32,000 nt of DNA from Lachnospiraceae bacterium (GCA_902363555.1 CABJAM010000006.1:370432-402431), one strand, 5' to 3'; positions 1,177 to 24,712 are shown, counted from the stretch's first letter. Numbers and translations: made by a program. Notes: generated from the letters alone by a model not told the origin.

Positions 1177-1347
1177 TCACTGTTGCGGGATAAGCCCCCG
1201 GCGCGTGACATACTCCGTTGCAAAACGGCGGTGTTCCGCTTCCTTTTCCCGCCAATACTCCCATAATGCAGCGTCGGCGGCTTCCGCAACATTCATTAAA
1301 AACCGTTCAAGCTGCTTTTGTTTTTCCTCTGCGCTACGTTTCCTCAT
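1177..1347 (-). CDS. Small conserved hypothetical protein (56 aa) overlapping the TraG stop
   Basis: ORF 1177-1452 trimmed to MRKRSAEEKQKQLERFLMNVAEAADAALWEYWREKEAEHRRF... AGGAGG lies 8 nt upstream of the ATG at 1347. It overlaps the end of TraG by 14 nt, typical operon packing. Confidence 0.5.
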   Translation of the reverse strand: MRKRSAEEKQKQLERFLMNVAEAADAALWEYWREKEAEHRRFATEYVTRRGLIPQQ

Positions 1348-3142
1348 GGTCTGCGTCCTCCTGTAAGTCTGCCGCGTCAATCTCGTAATAGTCAAAAACC
1401 TCGTCGGGCTTGACAATGGCGGGGCGGCGTTTAAGGTGCTTTTCCATGTCAAAGGCGTTCTTCGGGTCTGCGTCGGACAGGTACTTGTATTTCGGGTGCT
1501 TCGTTATGTCGAATTTATCCGAAAAGAACGGGCGCACCCCGCGTAGCTGCAAGATACATTTCCCTCCGTCCATGACTGCGATTTCATCTTCCGTCATAAG
1601 CTGCTTTCCCAATTTCTGATAGTTCAGCCCATGCGAAAGCTCCCGCCCCCTTGTTTCGGAAGTGTTGAAGCTGTCTATCGTTTCCTTGCCTAAAATCTCC
1701 GATATTTCTTTGAGCGTCGTTTTTTCCTTGCCGCCCAAGAAAAGCGTGGTGTCGCAGTTGCCGACTATGGTATCGGCGTTGTCCTTGTAGATTGCCTTTA
1801 GCTGTGACTGGCTCTGCAAGATGATTGACGCGGAGATTTCCCGGCTCCGTATGGTGGCTATGAGCTTTTCAAACTTCGGTATCTGCCCGATATTCGCAAA
1901 TTCATCAAGCAAGCACCTTACATGGACGGGAAGCCGCCCGCCGTATTCATCATCTGCTTTGTCGCACAAGAGGTTGAATAGCTGTGTGTAGAGAATACTC
2001 ACGACAAAGTTAAAGGTGTCGTCGGTGTCGCTGATAATCACGAAAAGGGCGGTCTTTCTGTCGCCTATGGTGTCAAGCTCCATTTCGTCGGTTTCCATAA
2101 GCTCCCGCAGCTCCTTAATGTCGAATGGGGCTAACCTCGCGCCGCATGAGATAAGTATGCTTTTTGCGGTCTTGCCCGCCGCAAGTTTGTATTTTTTGTA
2201 CTGCTTGACTGCAAAATGCTCCGGGTCTTTTTCTTCCAGACGTTCAAACATGAGGTCAACCGGGTTCTGGAAATCCTCGTCGTCCTCGCGGGCTTCCGAC
2301 GCATTTATCATTTCAAGCAGCGTCGTGAAGTTCTTCTCGTCCTCCGGGGCTTCATACCAGATATAGCCGATTAGCGCGGTGTAGTAGAGCTTTTCCGCTT
2401 TCACCCAGAAATCCTCGCCGGATTTTTCCCCGTCGCCTTTGGTGTTGGCGATAATGGTATTGACTAACTTCAAAATGTCCTTTTCGCTCCGCAGATAGGC
2501 AAAGGGATTGTATTTCATGGATTTTTTGAAGTTAATCGTATTTAGCACTTTGATACGGTATTTGTACCGCTGTAACATTTTCCCGGTTTCCAAAATCAGT
2601 GTTCCTTTCGGGTCAGTGACGATATACGACGTTGGAAAATCCTTTGACGTACATTGCATGAGCGACGGTTTCACAAAGAACCGGGTCTTGCCGCTGCCGG
2701 AACCGCCGATTACAAGGATATTTTTGTTTCTTGCGTATTTCGGCTGCTTCGGGCGGCTGTTCATGGTGAGCCGTTCCGTCTGTGTTAAGGGAATATTGTT
2801 CTCAAATACCGGGTCGGTGTACGGCTTTATGTCGTCAGCCCCGCCCCAACGCGCCGAACCGTATTCTGTCCCGCGGCGGTATTTCTTCGCGTTCTTGCCT
2901 TTGGTGTAGATAATCAGCCGGACAATGACCGCCCCCGCAATGCCTAAAGCTAAGTCTGCCGGGTGGAAGCTCGGCGCGATACTGGAAAAGGCGGCGGTAA
3001 AACCGTCCCCAAGATGTAGCAGCTTTGCGCTTGCGTCCGCGCCGGGGGAGAGCCGGACAGCCGCGCCCACTTTATCAAAGAGCCAGACAAAGAGCAGATA
3101 CGGGAGATTTAGGATAAGCAGCTTCTTGATTTCCGGCTTCAT
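1334..3142 (-). CDS. traG: Type IV coupling protein, TraG/VirD4 family (602 aa)
   Basis: N-terminal TM helices, Walker A GGSGSGKT, and the DEFANIG / ILQSQSQL motifs typical of TraG/VirD4. It is a paralog of 15161-16951. Confidence 0.9.
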   Translation of the reverse strand: MKPEIKKLLILNLPYLLFVWLFDKVGAAVRLSPGADASAKLLHLGDGFTAAFSSIAPSFHPADLALGIAGAVIVRLIIYTKGKNAKKYRRGTEYGSARWGGADDIKPYTDPVFENNIPLTQTERLTMNSRPKQPKYARNKNILVIGGSGSGKTRFFVKPSLMQCTSKDFPTSYIVTDPKGTLILETGKMLQRYKYRIKVLNTINFKKSMKYNPFAYLRSEKDILKLVNTIIANTKGDGEKSGEDFWVKAEKLYYTALIGYIWYEAPEDEKNFTTLLEMINASEAREDDEDFQNPVDLMFERLEEKDPEHFAVKQYKKYKLAAGKTAKSILISCGARLAPFDIKELRELMETDEMELDTIGDRKTALFVIISDTDDTFNFVVSILYTQLFNLLCDKADDEYGGRLPVHVRCLLDEFANIGQIPKFEKLIATIRSREISASIILQSQSQLKAIYKDNADTIVGNCDTTLFLGGKEKTTLKEISEILGKETIDSFNTSETRGRELSHGLNYQKLGKQLMTEDEIAVMDGGKCILQLRGVRPFFSDKFDITKHPKYKYLSDADPKNAFDMEKHLKRRPAIVKPDEVFDYYEIDAADLQEDADHEET

Positions 3143-3615
3143 AGCGATACCTCCCTGTCCTTGTTCTTGACCTTTGCCCGTTCCGCGTTTCTGCCCTGTG
3201 CAGCTTCTTTGAGGGTAGAGAGCAGCTTTCGGATTGAGGGCTTTTTCTCCTGTGTCAGCTTTTTTGCGGAAAATTCCTTAAAGGCTGCGGTCAGTACGTC
3301 CGCGTCCCGCCCCTTGAAGAAAACCAGATAGCGGGGCGGGCTTTCCGTCGCGTCCTTTTTCAGCGCAAAGTCGATACCGTACTTTTTCGCCGTACTCTCA
3401 AAGGCTTTGATATTGCCCTCGGTAATCTCAATGTTGGAAACGCCCGCGTTCTGCTTCATAAGCTGCTTTAAGCTCTGCTTGCCCTGTGGCGGTTTGGAAA
3501 GCTGTTTTTTTCCCTTTGACAGTATGGCTTTCATTGCCTTTTGGAGCGTCTGGGCGGTCAGCTTCCCGGTCTTGATGTAAAGGGCTATGGTCTTTTCGTT
3601 TACTTCGTCCTGCAA
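3139..3615 (-). CDS. PcfB-like / DUF3801-like conjugation protein (158 aa)
   Basis: TTG start with AGGAGG 9 nt upstream. Lys-rich protein with the FESTAKKYGIDFAL..RYLVFFKGRDADVL core, resembling 13285-14097. Its stop overlaps the TraG start. Confidence 0.7.
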   Translation of the reverse strand: MQDEVNEKTIALYIKTGKLTAQTLQKAMKAILSKGKKQLSKPPQGKQSLKQLMKQNAGVSNIEITEGNIKAFESTAKKYGIDFALKKDATESPPRYLVFFKGRDADVLTAAFKEFSAKKLTQEKKPSIRKLLSTLKEAAQGRNAERAKVKNKDREVSL

Positions 3616-3656
3616 TTTGTCGCGTCCTCCTTTCGCGTTTCTTTATGGGGCGGCGG

Positions 3657-3878
3657 TCAGATACGCACCCGCAGCCCGTTCAAGTCCTCGGCTCTGATAC
3701 CCACAAGATACCAGTTGTCGCCGTACTCAATCCGGGTCGGCTTCCACTTGCCCCGCACGAATACGTCAAAACATTCTCCACAATGCAGCCCGCCATAGTA
3801 GCTGTTTAAGTCAAAGCGGATGTCGTAACGGTCGGTGCGCTCGTCAAATACCAATGCTCCTGTCATTTTCTGTGCCAT
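3657..3878 (-). CDS. Small conserved hypothetical protein (73 aa; DUF5348-like by recall)
   Basis: ORF 3657-3926 trimmed to MAQKMTGALVFDERTDRYDIRFDLNSYYGGLHCGECFDVFVRGKWKPTRIEY..., with a GGAGG RBS upstream of the ATG at 3878. Confidence 0.6.
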   Translation of the reverse strand: MAQKMTGALVFDERTDRYDIRFDLNSYYGGLHCGECFDVFVRGKWKPTRIEYGDNWYLVGIRAEDLNGLRVRI

Positions 3879-3901
3879 AATAAAATCCTCCTTTTGTTGT
3901 T

Positions 3902-4885
3902 TTACAGGCTTTCGCCCGGTTTGCATGAATAATAGTCCGGGTCGCCGTACTGCGGCTTTTTCGGTGACAGTGCGCCGCTTGCCATGTCATGGGCGACAAG
4001 GGAAGTGTAATAATTGCCGATAGTGGACGGGGCGTTGAAAAGGGCTGCTTTCAGATATTGCTTGATGTTGCGGATTTTCGTTGTGTTCTCCCGCATACAG
4101 TCAAGCACAAAGCGGATATGCTCGCCGTCCAGTTTCATAAACTTAGATTTCACAAGCTCTGCCGGGTAGTCGTCCCCTGCAATCCGTACCCGCTTCCTTG
4201 CGGTGCATACGGTTTCAAGCATGAGGTCTACAATCTCGTCAAGCCTGTCACTGTCAAACTTCATGTCCTGTTTGAGAATGTGGTAGTCGATATTGTCCTT
4301 GATGATTTCCCGGTATATATCAACTGCGCTCTGTGCTGCCGCTTCCGTTCCTTTCCGTTCCGGCGGCGTAGCCGCTTCTCTGCAAGGAGAGGGGTTAGGG
4401 GAAAGGATAGGAATGGAATGGGTACTTTGTTCATCAGTAATTATTTTTTCTTTTTTTGGTAAGTAAGTTCTTTGTATATCTTTATTTAATTGCGTTGGAT
4501 TTTCCAACGTAGGTTTTTCCAATGTTGGTTTTTCCTGCGTTGGATTATCCAATGTTGGATTTTCCAATGTAGGTAAATCCGGCGTAGGCGGCTGCGGCTG
4601 CTCGAATATCACATAGTCCGCGCCCCGCAAGCGTCCTTTCTCGTCGCGCTCCCTTGAACGGACGATATACCCGGCGCGTTCAAGCTCCTTAATGGCTTCG
4701 CGGATAGCGTCTATCTTCTCCCGGTTGATAAGGGATAAGCCTTTCAAGGTGTAGTCCCAATCTTCGGGGAGTGACAGCATTTGCGATAACAGCCCCTTTG
4801 CCTTTAGGGAAAGCTCCTTGTTGCGTAGGTGGTGGTTGCTCATTACGGTGTAGCCCTTGTTCCGTTCCACTCTGAAAACTGCCAT
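3902..4885 (-). CDS. Replication-initiator-like protein: N-terminal winged-HTH, PT-rich pentapeptide linker, DnaD/replisome-organizer-like C-terminus (327 aa)
   Basis: The N-terminus reads FRVERNKGYTVMSNHHLRNKELSLKAKGLLSQMLSLPEDWDY, a typical ICE/plasmid rep HTH. A central repeat PTLENPTLDNPTQEKPTLEKPTLENPTQ follows. It is the first gene of the minus-strand module. Confidence 0.7.
   Translation of the reverse strand: MAVFRVERNKGYTVMSNHHLRNKELSLKAKGLLSQMLSLPEDWDYTLKGLSLINREKIDAIREAIKELERAGYIVRSRERDEKGRLRGADYVIFEQPQPPTPDLPTLENPTLDNPTQEKPTLEKPTLENPTQLNKDIQRTYLPKKEKIITDEQSTHSIPILSPNPSPCREAATPPERKGTEAAAQSAVDIYREIIKDNIDYHILKQDMKFDSDRLDEIVDLMLETVCTARKRVRIAGDDYPAELVKSKFMKLDGEHIRFVLDCMRENTTKIRNIKQYLKAALFNAPSTIGNYYTSLVAHDMASGALSPKKPQYGDPDYYSCKPGESL
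4491..4595. repeat. Six to seven tandem 15-bp repeats inside the rep-like gene
   Basis: Units begin at 4491, 4506, 4521, 4536, 4551 and 4566, with a degenerate copy at 4581. Examples: tgcgttggattttcc, aacgtaggtttttcc, aatgttggtttttcc. Confidence 0.85.
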
Positions 4886-4910
4886 AGTTCATAGCTCCTT
4901 TGCTTTGGAT

Positions 4911-5026
4911 TTGTTACGCAGTAGAAGCGCGGTTTCGGGGGATAAGGTATAAATCCCTTTCCGCGCCAGATACGCGCCCGGAAAACCGCTTGTAGCAAGG
5001 CTTTTTCTGCCCCTACTGCGTAACAA
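4911..5026. promoter_or_regulatory. Perfect 14-bp inverted repeat pair flanking an 88-bp spacer upstream of the rep-like gene
   Basis: TTGTTACGCAGTAG at 4911-4924 and CTACTGCGTAACAA at 5013-5026. The interval lies between the rep start (4885) and the terminator at 5034-5083. Confidence 0.6.
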
Positions 5027-5033
5027 AGGGCAT

Positions 5034-5083
5034 GAAAAAAGCGGCGTTCCTGCTCTCCCATGTAGAGAGTAAGAAACGCCGCT
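5034..5083 (-). terminator. Intrinsic terminator (minus strand) insulating the rep operon from upstream transcription
   Basis: Arms AGCGGCGTT (5040-5048) and AACGCCGCT (5075-5083). On the minus strand the stem is followed by TTTTTT (plus-strand A-run 5035-5040). Confidence 0.5.
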
Positions 5084-5119
5084 TCTGCGTCGTATTCAGT
5101 TTTTAGTACAATACCCTGC

Positions 5120-6928
5120 TTGTCCGTCGCTCGAAAAACCTTGATTTTCCAGTGTTTTCAAAAGTATCGTTATCTAACGTCAGCTTTCCAAAGACCAAGT
5201 TTCCAGAATATGATAAAAGACATTGAAAGCGGTCTGATAAACTGCGTGATTACGAAAGATTTATCCCGTCTGGGGAGAAACTATCTTGATTGTGGGTTAT
5301 ATCTGGAAGTTTTCTTCCCAGAGCATAACGTGAGGTATATAGCGGTCAATGACGGCGTAGATACCTTGAATAAATCTGCTATGGACATCACGCCTTTCCG
5401 CAACATTTTAAACGAAATGTATGCCGCTGACATATCTGTTAAGATAAAATCGGCATATCGGGCGAGGTTTCAACAGGGGAAATTCATGGGAACTACCGCC
5501 CCTTATGGCTATATCAAAGACCCTGCCGACCACAACCATCTGCTGATAGATGATAAAGTGGCACATGTTGTAAAAGAGATATTCGACCTTGCATTAAAAG
5601 GGAATGGAGTTGCCAAAATTTGCAGACATCTTAATAAACAGCATATCCTACGCCCTGCCGCTTATGCGGCGGAGCGTGGCGAAACAGGCTTTGAACGTCA
5701 TTTTGAGGGGAACGAGGACAAACGCTATATTTGGAGTGGGAACAGCGTGAGGAGCATTTTAAGAAGCCCGATATATGCGGGAAATCTTGTAGGCTACAAA
5801 CGGATTGCCGCCAATATGAAAAGCAAGAAACGCCCCTCTAAGCTGCCCGAAGAATGGGAAGTGATACCCAATACCCATGAGGGAATAGTCACGCAGGAGG
5901 AATTTGATATTGTCCAACAGCTTATTACAAGTCGTAGGCTTCCACAGAACAAGGGAGGATTTGTAAATATTTTTGCAGGCGTTATCAAGTGTGTGGACTG
6001 CGGATGTGCTCTGCGGGCAATGAACGTACACAGGAGGAAACGCCCAGAGATTATCGACTGTGTACAGTATTCATGTAATAATTATGCAAGAAACGGAAGA
6101 AGCGAGTGTAGTGCCCACAATATAGAAGCAAGGGATTTATTCAATGCCGTTCTTGCCGACATCAACTGTTTTGCGGATATGGCAGTGAATGATGAAAAGG
6201 CGGTCAGGGCCATAGAAAAGCGGCTCACGGAAACAGACCAGAGCAGGGCGAAAGCATTAGAGAAAGAACGTAAGAAGCTGAACAAACGCCTTGCGGAACT
6301 GGACAGGCTGTTTTCCTCTCTCTACGAGGATAAGGTCATGGAGCGTATTACCGAGCGGAATTTTGAGATGATGTCGGGGAAATACCAGAAAGAGCAGCTT
6401 GAAATTGAAGCAAGGCTGAAAGAGGTGACGGAAACTCTCAGCGACAGCTATGAGAAGACGCAGGGTGTCCGTGATTTCCTCTCCCTAATCCGCAACTATC
6501 AAGGCATTAAGGAACTGGACGCAACCATCATAAACGCACTTATAGACAAGATACTTGTTTCGGAACGTGAGAAACTTACAGACGGAATGGTGCGGCAGGA
6601 AATCAAGATTTATTATAAATTCATCGGCTTTGTCGGTGAATTACATATCACACCGACAAAGCGGTGGACTGCGTTAAAGCCTAAGAATTGTACGGTGTGC
6701 GGTGTTGAATATGTTCCCCGCTCTGGCATATCGAAGTATTGTCCTGCTTGTGCCAAGAAGATACAGAGGGAGAAATCAAACGAGAGCAAACGCAGGAGCA
6801 GGGAGCGAAACAGACAGGCATGTATTGAACTGTCCGCAAAAAATGACCGACTGATTTGGAACAGCGGCAAGGCAGGATTGAAAGACAGGGTAATATGTTC
6901 CCAGAAGTGGAGGTTTACCGCTATGTGA
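5120..6928 (+). pseudogene. Large serine recombinase, 5'-truncated (catalytic N-terminal ~55-60 residues missing)
   Basis: Recognisable homology starts near 5180 (SAFQRPSFQNMIKDIESGLINCVITKDLSRLGRNY). The recombinase domain, the zinc ribbon CVDCGCAL...YSCNNYARNGRSECSAHNI and the coiled coil are present. No YxRVS-type catalytic-serine motif occurs in any upstream frame. The TTG at 5120 is only the start of the open frame. Confidence 0.7.
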
Positions 6929-7794
6929 CCGAGCAGACCTTTGACGCCTACCTCTATCAGCTTGTGGAATCGAAACAGAAATTTATCTCCCAGATAATGA
7001 CGAGCAAAAGCCCCGTGCGTTCCGCCGAGGATGTGGACGAGGTGGCTCTTTCCTTTGCAGAGGTGAAAATGCTTGCCACGGGCGATGAGCGTTTCAAGGA
7101 AAAGATGGACTTGGATATGCAGGTGGCGAAGCTGAAAGTATTGAAGCAGAGCTACCTTTCCGAGCATTATGACCTTGAGGACAGGATACTGAAACACTTT
7201 CCGAGGGAGATAAAGGAGCTTGAGGAACGCATTGTCAGCTATGAAAGCGATACCGCCCTTGCCGAACAGCACAAGCCGCAGGGCGAGGATAAGTTCTGCC
7301 CCATGACCTTAAAGGGCGTGACCTATACCGAGAAAGCGGACGCAGGCGAAATGCTCCTTGCTGTCTGCAAGGAAAATCCGCTGTCAAATCCCGTGGAAAT
7401 CGGCAGCTACCGAGGTTTCAAGATGGAGGTTTATTACGACAGCTTCAACACCCATTACTGCCTTAACCTCTGCGGAAAGGCAAAGCACAAGGTGGATTTA
7501 GGCTCTGATGCTCTGGGAAATCTCACCCGTATTGAAAACGAGATTGGAAAAATCCCTGCCAGACTGGAAGCTGCCAAGACCCGAAAGGCGGAAACTCTGG
7601 AGCAGCTTGCCAATGCAAAGACCGAGGTGTTAAAGCCCTTTGCCTTTGAAGATGAGCTGAAAGAAAAGAACGACAGGCTGAACGCCCTCAATATTGAGCT
7701 GAATCTGGACGAGAAAGACGCTCCTGTTATGGATACCGAGCCAGAGCAGGAAAACGAACAGCCCGAAAAGAGAACACAGGACAGGGAGCGTTAA
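6847..7794 (+). pseudogene. 3' remnant of a large SNF2-family helicase (ICE helicase/methylase type), from helicase motif VI onward
   Basis: The frame opens at 6847 (PTD)LEQRQGRIERQGNMFPEVEVYRYVTEQTFDAYLYQLVESKQKFISQIM, which includes SNF2 motif VI QRxGRxxRxG. There is no N-terminal helicase or ATPase part and no plausible start or RBS. Confidence 0.65.
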
Positions 7795-7809
7795 ATCCCA
7801 TTTGCACAT

Positions 7810-7838
7810 TTGTATTGCTGAAATCTGGGCAGTATAAT
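7810..7838 (+). promoter_or_regulatory. Sigma-70-type promoter: TTGTAT, 17 nt, TATAAT
   Basis: -35 box at 7810-7815 and a perfect -10 box at 7833-7838, about 33 nt upstream of the ATG at 7871. Confidence 0.45.
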
Positions 7839-7870
7839 AGGTGACGATAAGAAAAACGGAGGTGAGGAAA

Positions 7871-8200
7871 ATGTCTGATGCGTTCAGATTTGAAACTTTT
7901 GTAGATGTTCACGGCAATATCTTCAACGAATATCTAAGCTCTGTCGTTGCCAGACTGTCGAAAGAGGACGAGGAATACAAAGCCCTGCAAGAAAAGATTG
8001 AAGCCATTTATGAGGAATATCCCAAGGTTTTAGCTGTGTTTGACAGCGAAACGGAAAGCGAGCTGACCGAGAAAGAATGTGCGGCTCTCATTGAGGTAAT
8101 GGAGCTGAAGAATAAGCTCACGGACATGGAGATGCAGGCGGTGTACTTCCGTGGCTGCTATGACAGCGTAGGCTATCTGAAAAAAGCAGGGATTTTATGA
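7871..8200 (+). CDS. Conserved hypothetical ICE protein (109 aa)
   Basis: ORF 7841-8200 trimmed to MSDAFRFETFVDVHGNIF..., with a GGAGGTGAGG RBS. A terminator follows it. Confidence 0.6.
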   Translation: MSDAFRFETFVDVHGNIFNEYLSSVVARLSKEDEEYKALQEKIEAIYEEYPKVLAVFDSETESELTEKECAALIEVMELKNKLTDMEMQAVYFRGCYDSVGYLKKAGIL

Positions 8201-8220
8201 CGGACTGACCGAGAAAAAGG

Positions 8221-8251
8221 ACGGCGTTGGCGTGAAGCTGATGCCGTTTTT
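8221..8251 (+). terminator. Putative terminator of the 7871-8200 gene
   Basis: Arms ACGGC (8221-8225) and GCCGT (8243-8247), then TTTTT. The stem is weak and the loop is long. Confidence 0.35.
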
Positions 8252-8262
8252 ACATAGCTGAG
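8251..8262 (+). repeat. Core repeat copy 1: TACATAGCTGAG
   Basis: Exact 12-mer, identical to 9415-9426 and 11/12 identical to 9921-9932. Confidence 0.9.
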
Positions 8263-8426
8263 ACAGACAAGAACCCCCATAACCCGATTTTTTTCATTGA
8301 TAATCGTAAAAAAGTATTGACAAGCCTCTGCAAAAGGTTTAGTCTGGATAAAAATACCAGAGAACACACATTCTAAAAACACTAAAGATAAAGCACAAAA
8401 AATATGTGCATTTATTTATTGATAGG

Positions 8427-8435
8427 TGTTAGAAT
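8427..8435 (+). promoter_or_regulatory. Extended -10 promoter element TGtTAGAAT for cassette 1, overlapped by an 11-bp inverted repeat
   Basis: TGTTAGAAT at 8427-8435. The inverted-repeat arms are ACACATTCTAA (8366-8376) and TTAGAATGTGT (8429-8439). A second candidate promoter is TTGACA (8317-8322), 17 nt, TAGTCT (8340-8345). Confidence 0.4.
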
Positions 8436-8472
8436 GTGTTTTTTTATTGATTGTTTTAGAGGAGGAAATCTT

Positions 8473-8676
8473 ATGCAAGAGTATTCAATTCTGGAAATTA
8501 ACTTTGAAAAGGGCATCTTAAAAACAATGGAGGGCAGGAATTTTAAGATTGATGTGTTTGATATACCAACGATGGTAGGATGGTGTCCCTGCGAAAATAT
8601 TACATACACAGAGATAAATGGAAGAAAAGTATTAAAGCATTACTCTGGTGTAACTGTAAGATTAAGAGAACAGTAA
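8473..8676 (+). CDS. Hypothetical small soluble protein (67 aa), cassette 1 gene 1
   Basis: ORF 8404-8676 trimmed to the ATG at 8473, preceded by AGAGGAGGA. Sequence: MQEYSILEINFEKGILKTMEGRNFKIDVFDIPTMVGWCPCENITYTEINGRKVLKHYSGVTVRLREQ. I recognise no family. Confidence 0.6.
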   Translation: MQEYSILEINFEKGILKTMEGRNFKIDVFDIPTMVGWCPCENITYTEINGRKVLKHYSGVTVRLREQ

Positions 8677-8691
8677 GGGAGGTGGTTTAGA

Positions 8692-9399
8692 ATGGCATCA
8701 AAGAAGAAAAACAATTTTATAAGGCAAAATAAAATTCCGCTTATTATTTTTACTATCGCAGTAGTTGGTGGGTATGTTGGTATCTATTTGGCGTTCAGAG
8801 GTGACGGCTTTCTTTCAGCAGGAAAGGATTTAACAAAAAGTGACTGGCTTTCTTTTTTGGGGGCATATCTTTCTTTTGTCGGCACAGTTGCAGTCAGTTT
8901 AATTGCACTTTTCCAGAGTAGCTATTATACAAAAGTGGAAAATGAGAGAAGATTGCAAGAACACAGAAAGAAAATTCAACCTATTTTCTTCGTAAATATT
9001 GCATCAATGAATAAGCAGATTGAGGGAACAGGAGAATTCTTCAATCCCTCAGACCCATCAACATACCCAAAGCATAATAATATCAAAATATCTATTGAAA
9101 ACGTGAATAGCTACCCAATAACTCATGTAATTGTCTTTGATAGGTATATTTGTCCTTTGCTAAAATGCAATGAATCTAAAAGCATTGTATGTGCCTATTA
9201 TGATACGGACGATGCAAAAAAATGGGCAAAAAAGCTTATAGTTCTGACAGATGATTTTGAAAGGAATGAACAAGGGATACCGAAGTGGTTTAATATCTGC
9301 TATGAGGATATAGACGGACAAGCTATGTTCCAGACTTTTGAATTAAAGAATTTTGATGGTACACCATACTATTCTCTTGAGGGAATACATGAAACATAA
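8692..9399 (+). CDS. Hypothetical membrane protein (235 aa): two N-terminal TM helices plus a ~155-aa C-terminal domain, cassette 1 gene 2
   Basis: GGGAGGTGG RBS. TM1 is IPLIIFTIAVVGGYVGIYLAF and TM2 is WLSFLGAYLSFVGTVAVSLIALF. The start lies 15 nt after the stop of gene 1. I recognise no family. Confidence 0.7.
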   Translation: MASKKKNNFIRQNKIPLIIFTIAVVGGYVGIYLAFRGDGFLSAGKDLTKSDWLSFLGAYLSFVGTVAVSLIALFQSSYYTKVENERRLQEHRKKIQPIFFVNIASMNKQIEGTGEFFNPSDPSTYPKHNNIKISIENVNSYPITHVIVFDRYICPLLKCNESKSIVCAYYDTDDAKKWAKKLIVLTDDFERNEQGIPKWFNICYEDIDGQAMFQTFELKNFDGTPYYSLEGIHET

Positions 9400-9414
9400 G
9401 CGGAGATTGCAATC

Positions 9415-9426
9415 TACATAGCTGAG
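9415..9426 (+). repeat. Core repeat copy 2: TACATAGCTGAG
   Basis: Exact 12-mer lying between the two cassettes. Confidence 0.9.
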
Positions 9427-9449
9427 TGGTAGAAAAATTCATGGATATG

Positions 9450-9458
9450 TGATACAAT
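9450..9458 (+). promoter_or_regulatory. Extended -10 element TGaTACAAT for cassette 2
   Basis: TGATACAAT at 9450-9458, about 37 nt upstream of the ATG at 9495. Confidence 0.35.
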
Positions 9459-9494
9459 TCCAAGTAGAAATAATAAGTGTTTGGAGGTAAGATT

Positions 9495-9890
9495 ATGCAA
9501 AAGCTAAAACTAAATAAGGATTTTGGTCAGCTTGTAAAGGCTCATGGCTATGAACTTGACCCTACCAAGGAATATATCATCAACATTGAAGATGAACTGC
9601 AAGAACAATCTGGAATCATGGCTGCGGTACAAACAATGGGATTACCTGCATTAAAGGATTACCATAAATGGCTTGCTGATAACAACTTTGATGTCAATAT
9701 GCCTAACCCAACAAATGATTTTGTATCTAAGTTTTATGGAGTAAAGCCTTTATGGACGACTGAATTATCACAAGGAATTGTGGTAAAAGCAGAAAACGAA
9801 GATGATTATTTCATTGTTATGGAATGTAGCAGATTAAATGAGGGATTCAAATATACTCAAATAATCGTTACATTAGGCGGATGCTTATAA
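9495..9890 (+). CDS. Hypothetical soluble protein (131 aa), cassette 2
   Basis: ORF 9477-9890 trimmed to MQKLKLNKDFGQLVKAHGYELDPTKEY..., with a GGAGGT RBS. I recognise no family. Confidence 0.6.
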   Translation: MQKLKLNKDFGQLVKAHGYELDPTKEYIINIEDELQEQSGIMAAVQTMGLPALKDYHKWLADNNFDVNMPNPTNDFVSKFYGVKPLWTTELSQGIVVKAENEDDYFIVMECSRLNEGFKYTQIIVTLGGCL

Positions 9891-9920
9891 GCCGTACTTC
9901 TACATTAAAATATATACCAT

Positions 9921-9960
9921 TACATAGCCGAGAGGTTTTCTTTACCGAAAGCCCCTCGGC
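9921..9960 (+). repeat. Core repeat copy 3 (TACATAGCCGAG) fused to an imperfect 9-bp hairpin
   Basis: 12-mer at 9921-9932. Arms GCCGAGAGG (9927-9935) and CCCCTCGGC (9952-9960) pair at 8 of 9 positions. The structure lies 31 nt upstream of the Toprim gene start. Confidence 0.8.
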
Positions 9961-9991
9961 TAAATTCATTTCTGGAGGTGATTTTATTTGA

Positions 9992-10972
9992 ATGGGAAGT
10001 AACGGCTATGTTCAGTTCGACCCCGCCGTGATTGAACAGGCACGGCAAATCGACCTGCTCTCCTACCTGCAACGGTACGAGCCGAGCAACCTAAAGCGTG
10101 TGGCAGGCAATGTCTACTGCACAAGGGAACACGACAGCTTGAAGATTTCCAACGGCAAATGGTACTGGTGGTCACGGGGCTTCGGCGGCTATTCTGCCCT
10201 TGATTATCTGATGAAAGTCAGAGAGCTTGGCTTCGTGGAAGCCGTGCAGACCCTCACGGGGGACATGGGCGACTGGAAACCGCCGCCCCCTGCCGTGAAA
10301 AAGGACGAACCGAAAGTGTTGCTCCTGCCAGAGAAAAATGTAGACTGCGATAAGGTGACAGAGTATCTTTTCGGGCGTGGCATTGATTATCAGCTCATAC
10401 AGGACTGCATCGCAGAGGGCATTATCTTTGAGAGCAAACCGTACCATAACGCCGTCTTTGTGGGTAAGGACGAAAGCGGAAAGCCAAAATATGCGGCTCT
10501 CAGGAGTACGCTTGGCAGCTCTTTCAGACAGGACGCATCGGGCAGCGACAAGCGGTATTCCTTCCGACTTCTGGCAAGAGAGCCGACAGACAAGGTGCAT
10601 TTATTTGAAGCCGCCATTGATTTACTGTCCTATGCCACCTACCTCAAATGCGAGGGAAAGGACTATAAGGCGGCAAACCTGCTCTCTTTATCGGGCGTGT
10701 ATCAGCCCAAAAAGGAACTCTCTGAGAGCAAAATCCCCATTGCCCTGTCCACTTACCTGCAAAAAAATCCGCAAATCAAGACCGTTATCCTGCACTTGGA
10801 TAACGACAGGACAGGCAGGTTATGTACCGCCGCCCTAAAAGAATTATTGCAGAAAGACTACAAAATCGTTGACGCCCCGCCGCCAGTCGGCAAGGATGTC
10901 AACGATTTTTTAATGTCCTATCTGGGGCTTGCAAGGCAGAAGCCGAGCCGTGAAAGGAGGGATGCCCGTTGA
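9992..10972 (+). CDS. DUF3991/Toprim-domain protein (primase-like ICE protein, 326 aa)
   Basis: N-terminus IDLLSYLQRYEPSNLKRVAGNVYCTREHDSLKISNGKWYWWSRGFGGYSALDYLM. Toprim-like E (HLFEAAIDLLSY) and DxD (LHLDNDRTG) motifs are present. Confidence 0.8.
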   Translation: MGSNGYVQFDPAVIEQARQIDLLSYLQRYEPSNLKRVAGNVYCTREHDSLKISNGKWYWWSRGFGGYSALDYLMKVRELGFVEAVQTLTGDMGDWKPPPPAVKKDEPKVLLLPEKNVDCDKVTEYLFGRGIDYQLIQDCIAEGIIFESKPYHNAVFVGKDESGKPKYAALRSTLGSSFRQDASGSDKRYSFRLLAREPTDKVHLFEAAIDLLSYATYLKCEGKDYKAANLLSLSGVYQPKKELSESKIPIALSTYLQKNPQIKTVILHLDNDRTGRLCTAALKELLQKDYKIVDAPPPVGKDVNDFLMSYLGLARQKPSRERRDAR

Positions 10973-11047
10973 TTGTGCAGTAGATTTTTAGCAGGAAAGA
11001 CCGCCAGACCACACCAAATTTAAGAATGAAAGCGAGGATTTTAACTA

Positions 11048-11350
11048 TTGAAACAGTATGATGTAACGCTCACAGGACACTATGAAAAGACCGTTTCCGT
11101 CTATGCCGACAGCCCAGAACAGGCGGCGGAGAAGCTCAAAATCATCCTCTTTGACACCGACCTTATCGACTTTTCCGATGAGGATTTTGTCTGCGGCGAA
11201 GCTGATATTGCGGAAGCAGACGGGGACGGAGAAAAGGAAAATGACACGCCCGATGATGAGCAGGACGAATGTCTGAAGCACGAGGATTGTTCGGAATGTC
11301 CGTACTTCTGCCCGATGTGCGGAGAATGCCGTCTGGAGGACGAGGACTAA
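11048..11350 (+). CDS. Small protein with a DpnD/PcfM-like N-terminus and a very acidic, Cys-rich C-terminal tail (100 aa)
   Basis: TTG start with GAGGA about 10 nt upstream. The N-terminal pattern is KQYDVTLTGHYEKTVSVYADSPEQAAEKL...DEDFV. The tail reads EADGDGEKENDTPDDEQDECLKHEDCSECPYFCPMCGECRLEDED. Confidence 0.5.
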   Translation: MKQYDVTLTGHYEKTVSVYADSPEQAAEKLKIILFDTDLIDFSDEDFVCGEADIAEADGDGEKENDTPDDEQDECLKHEDCSECPYFCPMCGECRLEDED

Positions 11351-11486
11351 GCAATGTCTTACCAAGCACTGAATTTGGTTATCCATCTCCCGATGGACGC
11401 CCAAATTCGCTTGTTAGGGGATGCCCCTAATACCCCATAAAAAGGATGCCGCCAAGGAAGCGGTCAGAAGAAAGGAGCTTTTAAGA

Positions 11487-11639
11487 ATGAGTGAGTTTTT
11501 ATTCTTTGTCATCGGCACGATGCTCGGCAGCATTATCGGCGTTGTGCTGATGTGCCTAATGCAGATTAACAGGCTCTCCGAAAGGAAGGAGGATGCCGAT
11601 GCGAAAAAGAAATGTGCAGATACTTTTCCGTCTGAATGA
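11487..11639 (+). CDS. Small single-TM protein (50 aa)
   Basis: ORF 11421-11639 trimmed to MSEFLFFVIGTMLGSIIGVVLMCLMQINRL..., with an AAAGGAG RBS. Its 3' end overlaps the MobC start. Confidence 0.45.
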   Translation: MSEFLFFVIGTMLGSIIGVVLMCLMQINRLSERKEDADAKKKCADTFPSE

Positions 11640-11931
11640 CGAGGAAGCCGCCTACCTTTATGAGCTTGTGGAGAGGTCGGGGCATTCCAAGGAGGCGTTG
11701 CTTCGTTCCATGCTGATGGGATACCGCCTCTGCGAGAAGCCAGACCCAGAGTTTTATAAAATCATGCGGGAGCTGTCGGCTATCGGCAACCGCATCAACC
11801 AGCTTGCGGCGAAAGCCAACGCCCTTGACTTCGTGGACGCCCCGATGCTCCGTGAGGAAGCCAAGCGGTGGCGGGAGTTCCGTCTGGAGGTCAGCAAAAG
11901 CTACCTGCTCCCCAGAAAGCAGACGGGCTGA
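11593..11931 (+). CDS. mobC: MobC-family relaxosome accessory protein
   Basis: RNVQILFRLNDEEAAYLYELVERSGHSKEALLRSMLMG....LSAIGNRINQLAAKAN matches the MobC pattern. The start may instead be the ATG at 11599. Its stop overlaps the relaxase ATG (TGATG). Confidence 0.8.
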   Translation: MPMRKRNVQILFRLNDEEAAYLYELVERSGHSKEALLRSMLMGYRLCEKPDPEFYKIMRELSAIGNRINQLAAKANALDFVDAPMLREEAKRWREFRLEVSKSYLLPRKQTG

Positions 11932-13343
11932 TGGCGGTCTGCGAGATATGGGATGTGAAAGGCAGGCTCGACCACCCCATCGACTATGCCAAAAACCCAG
12001 AAAAGACCGCCAACCCCAAATACAGCGAAAGCGATTTGCAGGCGATGGTGGATGTCATGGAATATGCTACTAACAAGGACAAGACCGAGCAGAGGTTTTT
12101 TGTCAGCGGCGTGAACTGCGACCCTGCCACCGCAAGGGACGAGATGATGATAGCCAAACACCAGTGGAACGACACGAGCGAGATTGTCTGCTACCACGGT
12201 TTCCAGAGTTTTAAGGCAGGCGAGGTCACGCCAGAGGTTGCCCATGAGGTAGGCGTGAAGTTAGCCGAGAAGATGTGGGGCGGCAGGTTTCAAGTGATTG
12301 TCGCCACCCACTTAAATACCGAGTGCCTGCACAACCACTTTGTCGTCAACTCCGTTTCCTTTACGGACGGCAAGCATTACCACGATAACAAGAAGAACCT
12401 GCGGTTATTGCGTAAGCGTTCTGATGAGCTGTGCAGGGAGTATGCGTTATCGGTTATCGAACACCCAAGCGGGAAGAAAAAGCCCTACGCCCTCTACCAA
12501 GCAGAAAAGCAGGGGCGACCTACGAGGGATACTGTGGCACGGCAGGCGGTGGACGAAGCCATCTCCAAATCCTATACGCTCAAAGACTTTGACCGCCAGT
12601 TGTCGGAAATGGGATACCGAGTGAGCTTTGACCCCAACCGCAAATACTGGACGATTATCGGAAAAGGATGGCAAAGACCGAAGCGGCTCTATAAGCTCGG
12701 GGAGGACTATACCAACGAGAGGATTGTGGAACGCATTAAGGAAAATTCCTATGCGGTGAAATTTTCCCGTTTTGCCGAGCAGACAAAGCCCGTCAAGGTC
12801 ATAAGGGTAAAAGGCTCATTAAAGGATGCCAAGAAAATCGGCGGCTTGCGTGGGCTGTATCTCCACTACTGCTATAAGCTCGGCATCCTGCCGAAGAACA
12901 GAAAACAGAATTACGCACGGCTTCACTATCTCCTAAAGGACGACCTTATGAAGATGGAAGCCATCACACAGGAAACAAGGCTGCTCTGCCGTTGTCACAT
13001 CGACACCCCAGAGCAGCTTTGTTCATATAAAGGCTCTCTGGAATCCGAAATCCATGAGCTGACCGAACAGCGTAAGGGGCTTTATTCCCAGAGCCGCAAG
13101 GTAAGCGGCGAAGAAAAAGAAGCGGTCAAGGCTCGGCTTTCGGAAATCACGGAGCGTATGAAATTTTTACGGAAGGAGGTCAGACTGTGCGGGGGCATCG
13201 AAGCCCGCAGCGATACCCTCAGAGAAAAGTTACAGGTCATACGGGCAGACGAAAACGAACAGCAAAGAAAGGAGCTGATGAAGGATGAACACAGGCGGCG
13301 AAGCGGCGGAGCAAATCGTGAGAATGAGCTTGGAGGGATTTGA
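11931..13343 (+). CDS. Relaxase / mobilization nuclease (MobA/VirD2-type relaxase domain, 470 aa)
   Basis: ORF 11868-13343 trimmed to MAVCEIWDVKGRLDHPIDYAKNPEKT. A His-rich metal motif VATHLNTECLHNHFVVNSVSF is present. It directly follows mobC. Confidence 0.85.
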   Translation: MAVCEIWDVKGRLDHPIDYAKNPEKTANPKYSESDLQAMVDVMEYATNKDKTEQRFFVSGVNCDPATARDEMMIAKHQWNDTSEIVCYHGFQSFKAGEVTPEVAHEVGVKLAEKMWGGRFQVIVATHLNTECLHNHFVVNSVSFTDGKHYHDNKKNLRLLRKRSDELCREYALSVIEHPSGKKKPYALYQAEKQGRPTRDTVARQAVDEAISKSYTLKDFDRQLSEMGYRVSFDPNRKYWTIIGKGWQRPKRLYKLGEDYTNERIVERIKENSYAVKFSRFAEQTKPVKVIRVKGSLKDAKKIGGLRGLYLHYCYKLGILPKNRKQNYARLHYLLKDDLMKMEAITQETRLLCRCHIDTPEQLCSYKGSLESEIHELTEQRKGLYSQSRKVSGEEKEAVKARLSEITERMKFLRKEVRLCGGIEARSDTLREKLQVIRADENEQQRKELMKDEHRRRSGGANRENELGGI

Positions 13344-24326: not shown

Positions 24327-24343
24327 AAAAAGGGCGAAAGAAA

Positions 24344-24371
24344 ACCAGAGGTTTATTCCTCTGGCTCTTTT
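24344..24371 (+). terminator. Terminator after the hydrolase gene. It overlaps the 3' end of the convergent XRE gene.
   Basis: CCAGAGG-tttatt-CCTCTGG followed by CTCTTTTG. Confidence 0.5.
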
Positions 24372-24712
24372 GCCTTACATAGTCCGTTTACGGTTGCTTC
24401 TATGACGGAAAGCTCTTTATCGTCCAATCTGTTGAGCTGTGCGTCTAAGCGTCTGCGGACAGAACTTTTTTCGACTTCCTTATTTGGGAATATGTACTCG
24501 TCAACAGACACATCAAACATTGTCACAAGCTGAATGAATAACTCCAGACTTGGATATTGCCCCTCATTTTCGATTGCCTGCAAATGTCATGGGTCATAGT
24601 CAACAATACGGGCAAGCTGCTCTCTGGTCATACCTTGAGATGTTCTCGCTTTCTTAATTGCCTGTCCTATTGGCGTAAAATCGAAGTCAAAATGATTGTT
24701 CCTTTCGTCCAT
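24353..24712 (-). pseudogene. XRE-family HTH regulator interrupted by an in-frame TGA at codon 42
   Basis: My translation from the ATG at 24712 gives MDERNNHFDFDFTPIGQAIKKARTSQGMTREQLARIVDYDP*HLQAIENEGQYPSLELFIQLVTMF... The stop is at 24589-24587, and the same frame continues into ORF 24353-24583. Confidence 0.75.

Follow-up and report, generated by a model that had tools for sequence, protein, structure and literature searches.

A hypervariable cargo slot between a terminator and a leader hairpin in the backbone of Tn1549-type integrative and conjugative elements of gut Clostridia

We analysed a stretch of 32,000 nucleotides from a Lachnospiraceae bacterium (GCA_902363555.1 CABJAM010000006.1:370432-402431; hereafter the window), which carries the transfer genes of an integrative and conjugative element (ICE). 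Positions 8251-9932 of the window are the filled state of a nucleotide-precise, hypervariable cargo slot in the ICE backbone. This slot is the gap between the intrinsic terminator of a gene for a DUF6664 protein and a conserved leader element, with a hairpin, that precedes a gene for a DUF3991/Toprim protein. We document the hotspot itself, its boundaries, the hairpin at its right edge, the modular leaders of its units and their defence cargo, and weigh how the units may be gained and exchanged. The features of the slot, with corrected starts (8473, 8692 and 9495) for the three cargo open reading frames (ORFs), are these:

7871-8200, plus strand: DUF6664 gene (Pfam PF20369, E = 2.6e-59), the conserved left anchor of the slot
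8217-8255, plus strand: intrinsic terminator of the DUF6664 gene, a stem-loop and T-tract (terminator scan; fold -21 kcal/mol, z = -3.75)
8251-8262, plus strand: core copy 1, TACATAGCTGAG, the left edge of the slot
8263-8472, plus strand: type-B leader of unit 1, with a TTGACA promoter and a strongly structured 5' untranslated region (UTR; fold z = -4.36; no Rfam match)
8473-8676, plus strand: cargo ORF of 67 amino acids (aa)
8692-9399, plus strand: cargo ORF of 235 aa (>130 homologues)
9415-9426, plus strand: core copy 2, TACATAGCTGAG, the junction of two stacked units
9427-9494, plus strand: type-A leader of unit 2, with TAGAAA at 9430-9435, a 17-nt spacer, a TG-extended TACAAT at 9453-9458 (promoter scan) and a ribosome-binding site (RBS)
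9495-9890, plus strand: cargo ORF of 131 aa (>600 homologues, 64-98% identity)
9921-9932, plus strand: core copy 3, TACATAGCCGAG, marking the slot's invariant right edge
9925-9962, plus strand: conserved leader hairpin, a 14-bp stem with one mismatch (arms 9925-9940 and 9947-9962)
9963-9991, plus strand: conserved tail (GGCT)AAATTCATTTCT, then the RBS GGAGG (9974-9978)
9992-10972, plus strand: DUF3991/Toprim gene (Pfam PF13154 and PF13155), the conserved right anchor of the slot

The three core copies had been marked in the initial annotation, made from the sequence alone, as the bounds of a low-GC island, and motif scan and base composition both bear this out. Allowing at most one mismatch, the 12-mer occurs three times in the window, where 0.12 matches are expected, and three or more matches were found in none of 100 shuffles; the copies of TACATAGCTGAG and TACATAGCCGAG are exact, and in register the repeat is 14 nt long (TTACATAGCTGAGA / CTACATAGCTGAGT / TTACATAGCCGAGA). 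The G+C fraction is 0.31-0.36 across 8250-9900, against 0.50-0.56 beyond 10050. This excess of matches, with the conservation of the motif across the family, rules out a chance repeat. Copy 1 lies directly 3' of the DUF6664 terminator, a placement already noted in the initial annotation and now supported by terminator scan and fold; the T-tract continues straight into the copy, and the terminator is kept in nearly all loci. Two other identities of the motif were considered and rejected. A dif/Xer-like site was dropped, since by eye 8 of 11 positions match the XerD arm and the XerC arm is absent. Insertion of an insertion sequence (IS) or transposon with target-site duplication, discounted from the start, fails as well: neither a transposase domain nor terminal inverted repeats are present, the repeat varies from 0 to 19 nt in length, and genuine IS3 insertions elsewhere in the slot look different from the core-bracketed units. 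The three window cargo ORFs gave no match to a transposase or integrase domain in Pfam, NCBIfam, PADLOC or PHROGs.

The evidence for a hotspot comes from related elements. A DUF6664 protein profile retrieved 80 genome loci from different species and, together with protein-identity look-ups and one metagenome scan, these gave 64 distinct slots. The DUF3991/Toprim gene follows the slot in about 60 loci, and where it is present its distance from the DUF6664 gene ranges from 125 bp to more than 3.4 kb. Six of the 64 slots are empty (G+C 0.40-0.48) and 58 are filled (G+C 0.29-0.40), holding about 0.8-3.4 kb of low-GC DNA in a backbone of about 0.50. The terminator T-tract of the empty slots abuts a single TACATAGCCGAG, to which core copies 1 and 3 of the window both correspond. 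For instance, the empty locus L023 reads DUF6664 stop codon, terminator, GCCGTCTTT/TACATAGCCGAGAGGTTTTC, loop, GAAAGCCCCTCGGCTAAATCTATTTCTGGAGG and Toprim gene (the slash marking the slot boundary, here and in TTT/TACATAG below), which is exactly the left flank of the window, one core and the right flank of the window. In the filled slots, 90 ORF families make up about 40 combinations, the plus strand encoding almost all of them, and backbones less than 8% diverged carry five to seven different states, the empty one included. Recognisable cargo of relatives includes PARIS (AriA and AriB), TIR-SIR2 with a HEPN protein, an HD-domain protein, AbiTii and an nSTAND NTPase. All recognisable cargo belongs to defence systems, and none of it is anti-defence.

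The motif is equally bound to the slot. Exact core copies number 78 inside slots and four formally outside them, the latter being right-junction copies at loci in which no Toprim gene was detected. A motif scattered through genomes is ruled out, as 0.95 Mb of related loci carry the 12-mer in the slot alone; in viral contigs the 16-mer with its hairpin is confined to this ICE family, other matches being chance ones inside coding sequence. Ruled out too is the presence of the same three genes in all relatives, a combination seen just in contigs with identical flank proteins and in L016. Thus the cargo-acquisition hotspot proposed in the initial annotation stands, at a fixed position, with the empty sites (a single TACATAGCCGAG with its hairpin) and the many fillings between cores that it had anticipated. 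Since content is highly variable and the motif is not scattered, neither of the two objections it had raised against itself, uniform gene content and a motif strewn through genomes, applies. Of the cargo roles it had named, defence is found in relatives (PARIS, TIR-SIR2, AbiTii), and anti-defence is absent among the recognisable cargo. Two variants of the layout deserve mention. Loci of Toprim cluster 3-5 (e.g. L029, L031, L034 and L038), one sub-lineage, have an extra conserved small gene, F1, called at about 48-87 aa, between hairpin and Toprim gene, the core there being about 430 nt upstream of the Toprim gene as against about 70 nt elsewhere. In a phage-like viral contig (L097, 11019-11760), an F70-like cargo gene of 211 aa is followed by core, hairpin and RBS, with no Toprim gene; its DUF6664-like match is weak and partial (46% identity over 61 residues), and the slot fragment adjoins an amidase gene and an integrase remnant.

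At their right ends, the variable units stop at (T)TT/TACATAG in 46 of 47 distinct cases, with T at 74-83% in positions -3 to -1. The single exception is an internal junction in L088, which also bears a copy of the terminator. At the left ends, the breakpoints lie 0 to 16 nt into the motif, the match to the empty site breaking off 0, 6-8, 10-11 or 15 nt into ACATAGCCGAGAGGT. Some 90% of left junctions retain TACATAG, and a left copy is missing altogether from about 10% of filled slots. On either side of the units stand direct repeats of 7-19 nt, which in several lineages are perfect over 16-19 nt. The left-hand copies, with which most units begin, are partial duplicates of the right-hand boundary, joined to the unit promoters. 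We make no claim of a promoter in the unit 3' ends that would drive the Toprim gene: there is a mild excess of -10-like hexamers over the last 13 nt, with no positional peak. The promoter leaders fall into three types:

Type A: core and GGTRGAAAAWTTCAT...TGnTATAAT, in window unit 2 and many others
Type B: core and ACAGACAAGAA...TTGACA with a structured UTR, in window unit 1, L019, L072 and L116
Type C: an own covarying hairpin, a spacer and TTGAAAATTTCAT, in L056, L059, L067, L088 and L090

The structure within the type-B leader may be an attenuator or a riboswitch-like control element. The block of core and GGTRGAAAAWTTCAT recurs before many unrelated cargos, as does the type-C block. The window, L019 and L072 share 88% identity from the DUF6664 gene through core and type-B leader as far as the first cargo ATG, past which they are unrelated. 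Leaders being common to unrelated cargo, many cargo replacements have taken place downstream of the promoter rather than at the core. Where distant backbones share a unit, unit and backbone have diverged to the same degree, as in L018 and L083 with 76% identity throughout; by this comparison such units are old residents and not recent arrivals. Each unit is insulated, by the DUF6664 terminator upstream and the leader hairpin downstream. The promoters that had been predicted for both window units were recovered, that of unit 2 by promoter scan and that of unit 1 (TTGACA at 8317-8322, 17 nt, TAGTCT) by direct reading, below the threshold of the scan. Within 8330-8472 a terminator-like stem, AACACACATTCTAA/TTAGAATGTGTT, is followed by T7 and is kept before unrelated cargo in L019, L072 and L116.

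The window holds two such units in tandem, the first with a type-B leader and the 67-aa and 235-aa genes, the second with a type-A leader and the 131-aa gene. Another ICE, L131, has in its slot a gene for a homologue of the 235-aa protein (79% identity), and the 3' flank of that gene (GATTGCAAT; TAAGTGAAGATTGCAATT) directly meets TACATAGCCGAGAGG, the hairpin and the Toprim gene. The equivalent window flank, TAAGCGGAGATTGCAATC, meets TACATAGCTGAG, the type-A leader, the 131-aa gene and then a second core. This marks out unit 2 as a separate, added module, lying between unit 1's right edge and the leader hairpin. Three 12-mer copies occur in the window lineage only; of the filled slots, 23 hold two copies and 31 a single one. 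The internal junction of L088 consists of a degenerate DUF6664 3' end, the terminator and the core, an arrangement that would indicate unequal exchange between two ICE copies, not integration at a fixed site.

The right boundary is itself part of a conserved structure. Copy 3 makes up the 5' flank and left arm of the leader hairpin, as had been proposed, though the hairpin is slightly larger than first described; in the window it folds at -23.6 kcal/mol (z = -5.5). The sequence TACATAGCC is invariant in 32 of 32 diverse relatives. Across the alignment 99.3% of cells are paired and 3 of the 14 pairs show double (compensatory) changes, such as TTTTC/GAAAA to TTTATC/GATAA and GCCGAG/CTCGGC to GCCAAG/CTTGGC; none of 500 shuffles was as good, and slid registers were 36-61% paired. 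Some 10 G-U wobbles, scattered over stem pairs that are otherwise conserved, fit the plus strand only, which suggests structure at the RNA level; two central stem pairs and a constant A.C mismatch carry no strand information. The hairpin likely acts as RNA in front of the Toprim operon, whether by terminating or attenuating transcription or by stabilising the 5' end. A T-rich tail, GGCTTTTTCTATTT, comes after the stem in most lineages, with the Toprim RBS about 25 nt further on. The window lineage has GGCTAAATTCATTT, a weak T-tail, at this place, and the terminator scan did not call the hairpin in the window. Rfam gave no match to a known RNA family across 7700-11700 at E up to 1.

The conserved leader element as a whole, TACATAGCC-stem/loop-GGCTAAAT(C/T)YAT-RBS, heads the Toprim, relaxase and type IV secretion system genes. 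A paralogous leader stands upstream of parA in three ICE copies with an intact left end (L003, at 3890-3975, L004 and L011), in the order terminator, extended -10 TGGTATAGT, TACATAGCC-GCCTTGACAAAGC-GGCTAAATCTAT, RBS (GGAGG) and parA. Its stem differs from that of the Toprim leader, and the flanks TACATAGCC and GGCTAAATCTAT are identical. A covariance model built from Toprim leaders recovers the parA leader at 22.6 bits, and finds one hairpin copy per slot together with weak matches to the type-C left copies. The -10 of the parA leader would start a transcript at the hairpin foot, and this suggests a stem-loop that stabilises the 5' terminus. Given the invariant TACATAGCC, the covarying stem and the parA paralogue, the 12-mer is the 5' foot and ascending arm of a conserved leader hairpin placed at operon starts. 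In L060 an IS3-family element (OrfA/OrfB, minus strand; 8310-10030) sits in the hairpin loop and splits core and left arm from the right arm; elements can thus do without the hairpin, at least for a short time. At about 11120 in L048 the hairpin is cut at the same point by the same sequence, and in L022, at about 7710, it is cut after the left arm by a different sequence.

As to how the slot is filled, we lean, with modest confidence, towards exchange and stacking of promoter-bearing units among related ICEs by way of flank, leader and short-repeat homology. Filled elements carry one or more self-promoted, low-GC, plus-strand units, often anti-phage systems, and units and cargo ORFs would pass between related ICEs by recombination in the conserved flanks and leaders. 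Stacking would follow from unequal exchange in which one slot's right edge recombines with the left edge of a second. These edges have nothing but TTTTACATAGCYGAG(AGGT) in common, and since the core is the sole sequence that a right edge shares with the left edge of another slot, such exchange would suffice to leave a core between and beside units. Occasional illegitimate events may occur in addition, and a dedicated cassette recombinase would not be required. The varied left breakpoints, the common leaders, the co-divergence of units and backbones, the lack of a linked recombinase and the presence of the 131-aa gene without core elsewhere all fit this pattern.

Several observations weigh against homology exchange. 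Simple selection would predict a less uniform right boundary, and the invariant unpaired TACATA suggests sequence-specific recognition by some factor. Retention of TACATAG at about 90% and the perfect repeats of 16-19 nt would be equally expected from a recombinase with a 7-bp overlap, and 12-19 bp of homology is short for RecA-dependent exchange. No near-identical ICE pair differing by one event was found; among pairs with different cargo, the closest shares about 97% identity, so that the exchange event itself was never seen. Imported tracts beside the slot were not seen either, the flank identity profiles being flat and uninformative at about 97% identity. Finally, the function of the leader hairpin is predicted from sequence, and its T-tail is weak in the window lineage.

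Some of these features would be natural in a site-specific cassette system, in which TTT/TACATAG(CCGAG) would be an att-like crossover core and units would excise as circles under a host or ICE recombinase acting in trans, functionally like an integron without attC or IntI. Direct repeats do bracket the units, and empty sites hold exactly one copy. Of 47 unit ends, 46 share the right junction to the exact nucleotide, and the sequence past TACATAG, in the roughly 90% of left junctions that have it, often switches abruptly, as in a hybrid site. Window unit 2 is a precise core-to-core addition relative to L131, and turnover is high among closely related backbones. We nonetheless consider such a system rather unlikely. 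No recombinase is linked to the slot, the large serine recombinase encoded at 5120-6928 being missing from most relatives, and the left breakpoints, at 0, 6-8, 10-11 or 15 nt, define no single position. Leaders including the left core are kept before different cargos, which points to swaps downstream of the supposed site; the divergence of units matches that of the backbone; and a cargo gene occurs in other elements without the core. Arrays are short, with three cores in the window lineage only, and L088 duplicates the terminator too. Precise core-to-core deletion products of the window lineage were absent from the metagenome scan, whose five matches were two empty sites and three type-A units in other lineages. 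In a broader form, TTT/TACATAG(CCGAG) would be the crossover of an undescribed cassette-capture system without an integron-type integrase, in which a host or ICE recombinase or the relaxase, acting in trans, would load promoter-bearing defence units and stack them at the hairpin foot, in the ICE DNA that enters first; this too seems to us doubtful. The proposal in the initial annotation that the 12-mer is itself a relaxase or recombinase site is unproven, and the varied left breakpoints, the shared leaders, the core-less 131-aa loci, L088 and an oriT candidate unlike the core all speak against it.

The repeat might instead be regulatory, TACATAGCYGAG serving as an operator or recognition sequence, for a regulator of the ICE or a factor that binds RNA, that co-regulates the cargo units and the Toprim and parA operons; the repeats would then be kept for their function and would not be scars of recombination. 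This idea is compatible with exchange by homology, and is suggested by the invariant unpaired TACATA, by the frame TACATAGCC...GGCTAAATCTAT at two operon starts, by the position of the type-A core immediately upstream of the -35 and by the covarying hairpin retained in type-C left copies. We hold it to be improbable, as left copies decay about neutrally past TACATAG in several shared units (e.g. L019 and L040), about 10% of filled slots lack a left copy, and no candidate regulator was identified. Least likely of all, and in our estimate very improbable, is capture by the relaxase, with core and hairpin as a nic site (secondary or the true oriT) at which the MobA/VirD2-type enzyme would join DNA, as in oriT-oriT recombination or at T-DNA borders, with the bottom-strand inverted repeat followed by TGTA/AAA: a bottom-strand hairpin 4-6 nt from the slot boundary with the relaxase genes on its side has the usual oriT geometry, and one precise and one variable junction suit nick-initiated events, but a better oriT candidate with two inverted repeats (>90% conserved) lies at 11355-11440 and has no motif in common with the core, most sporadic hairpin wobbles fit the plus strand rather than the one to be transferred, parA is preceded by a paralogous copy, and an IS3 element in the hairpin loop is tolerated.

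The cargo of the window had been described as orphan genes, a term that does not suit the 131-aa and 235-aa proteins, with their more than 600 and more than 130 homologues. The 67-aa ORF has no match in Pfam, NCBIfam, PADLOC or PHROGs. The AlphaFold model of the 235-aa protein (predicted local distance difference test score, pLDDT, 83) shows two N-terminal membrane helices, a long helix and an immunoglobulin-like beta-sandwich; Foldseek gave no significant fold match to it in the PDB, and the best family signal is a weak one to PycTM (E = 5e-4, PADLOC). The protein is possibly a membrane defence effector. By analogy, unit 1 is plausibly an abortive-infection-type membrane system, as AbiTii sits behind the same leader type in a sister unit. 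The 131-aa protein is modelled with an alpha/beta fold (pLDDT 77), and has neither a domain match nor a PDB fold match by Foldseek. Its homologues occur in a Clostridium butyricum prophage, in TnpV/Tn554-like elements and in ICEs, often beside KilA-N and Thoeris genes, and no core was found near the gene at the prophage and TnpV/Tn554-like loci examined. This highly conserved family is a candidate accessory or counter-defence gene of mobile elements.

The element that hosts the slot is, judged by its domains, a Tn1549-type ICE: the window encodes a PF03432 relaxase, a VirD4 protein with PF02534 and PF12696, a VirB4 protein with a weak match to PF12846 (AAA_10) and DUF3801. The family is defined by a PF03432 MOBP relaxase, VirD4 with PF02534/PF12696 and VirB4 with PF12846 (PMC12084326). 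Elements of the window type are common in gut Lachnospiraceae and Oscillospiraceae. Around the slot lie the following genes:

5120-6928, plus strand: large serine recombinase gene, ahead of the giant-gene remnant
11048-11350: DpnD/PcfM-like gene
11593-11931: NikA-like ribbon-helix-helix gene
11868-13343: MobA/VirD2-type relaxase gene
downstream of the relaxase gene: DUF3801, VirD4, VirB4 and a lysozyme/CHAP gene

In most relatives a giant SNF2/methylase/helicase gene (2754-2766 aa) lies upstream of the DUF6664 gene, and the window keeps just its C-terminal remnant (6856-7794). The interval 1334-7794 looks like a nested element inserted in that gene. On the minus strand there are genes of another conjugative element, namely VirD4 (1334-3142), DUF3801 (3139-3615) and DUF6017/helix-turn-helix (HTH; 3902-4885). 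Loci L131-L136 share the arrangement of a recombinase and a 299-aa gene. Directly upstream of the DUF3789/NikA-like/relaxase genes, at 11355-11440, is a probable origin of transfer (oriT), with two inverted repeats (GAATTTGG..CCAAATTC and TTAGGGG..CCCCTAATACCCC; also written GTCTTACCAAGCACTGAATTTGG..CCAAATTCGCTTGTTAGGGG..CCCCTAATACCCC) that are more than 90% conserved in 42 distinct relatives. Tsvetkova and colleagues are said to have mapped the oriT of Tn1549, in 2010, at the corresponding position. In PLSDB, a search for plasmid relatives carrying an oriT annotation returned no more than two matches, both weak and partial. About 1.4 kb separates the slot from the candidate oriT at 11355-11440, a proximity that had been surmised, and the slot is co-oriented with the transfer genes; a place in the element's leading region is plausible. 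Elsewhere in the window, TTACATAG (24340-24392) also follows a terminator, that of the lysozyme/CHAP gene, at the border of a cargo region with two-component and ATP-binding cassette (ABC) transporter genes. The TACATAG at 24376 was considered and set aside, being probably a chance match inside the 3' end of a convergent HTH gene, in a context invariant in relatives.

In the human and animal gut, few conjugative elements are as abundant as Tn1549-type ICEs. The slot can be defined simply by a terminator followed by TTTTACATAGCCGAG and its hairpin and, after these, the Toprim gene, and this definition offers a handle for mining hundreds of insulated, self-promoted and mostly unannotated low-GC units as candidates for defence and counter-defence. 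It also lets the gain and loss of units be tracked in metagenomic time series, and points to a natural 'safe harbour' for the expression of cargo on such elements. If the boundary motif were recognised by an enzyme, the slot would represent a new mechanism of cassette capture; if not, it would be a clean example of how boundary repeats and shared leaders let related ICEs shuffle and stack their cargo.

Several known systems resemble the slot in part. Like integron arrays, it has a short core at unit boundaries and small tandem units that lack a recombinase, share one orientation and carry defence cargo. Unlike integrons, which the initial annotation had already set aside, it has no IntI or attI and no attC at unit 3' ends, its arrays reach at most two or three units, its left junctions vary, its units have their own promoters rather than a common Pc, and its 131-aa cargo gene occurs elsewhere without a core. 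No Phage_integrase domain was found in the ORFs scanned beside the slot (5120-7794 and 9992-13343), where the large serine recombinase is the sole recombinase; as for an attC-like palindrome, the end of unit 1 (9400-9414) forms no hairpin, and the window has one at the last copy only. SXT/R391 ICEs carry variable DNA at hotspots HS1-HS5, HS5 being a hotspot for defence. With these the slot shares a fixed intergenic position in the backbone, sharp boundaries, interchangeable cargo rich in anti-phage systems and a presumed recombination between elements. It differs in lying in a Tn1549-type ICE of Clostridia, between two hairpins and immediately upstream of the Toprim/relaxase genes, and in having stackable units with conserved promoter leaders, bracketed by 7-19-nt repeats of the right boundary. 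A further likeness is to the leading-region islands of anti-defence genes on conjugative plasmids (Samuel and Burstein 2024, PMC11541004): the slot is an accessory cluster near a probable oriT, co-oriented with the transfer genes, and its neighbours include a giant methylase-helicase 'dyad' and a ParB-like gene. In contrast to those islands, its recognisable cargo is defence (PARIS, TIR-SIR2, Abi), its promoters are of the double-stranded sigma-A type and not Frpo-like hairpins, and its assignment to the leading region comes from sequence rather than from a mapped oriT or transferred strand. Within the Tn1549 family itself, variable genes including defence systems are interspersed in the conjugation module, as here; that survey records non-conserved genes, not this slot, its empty and filled states or its boundary motif (PMC12084326). 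The slot is a cargo and defence hotspot in an ICE backbone like those of SXT/R391, here in the Tn1549-type family of gut Clostridia.

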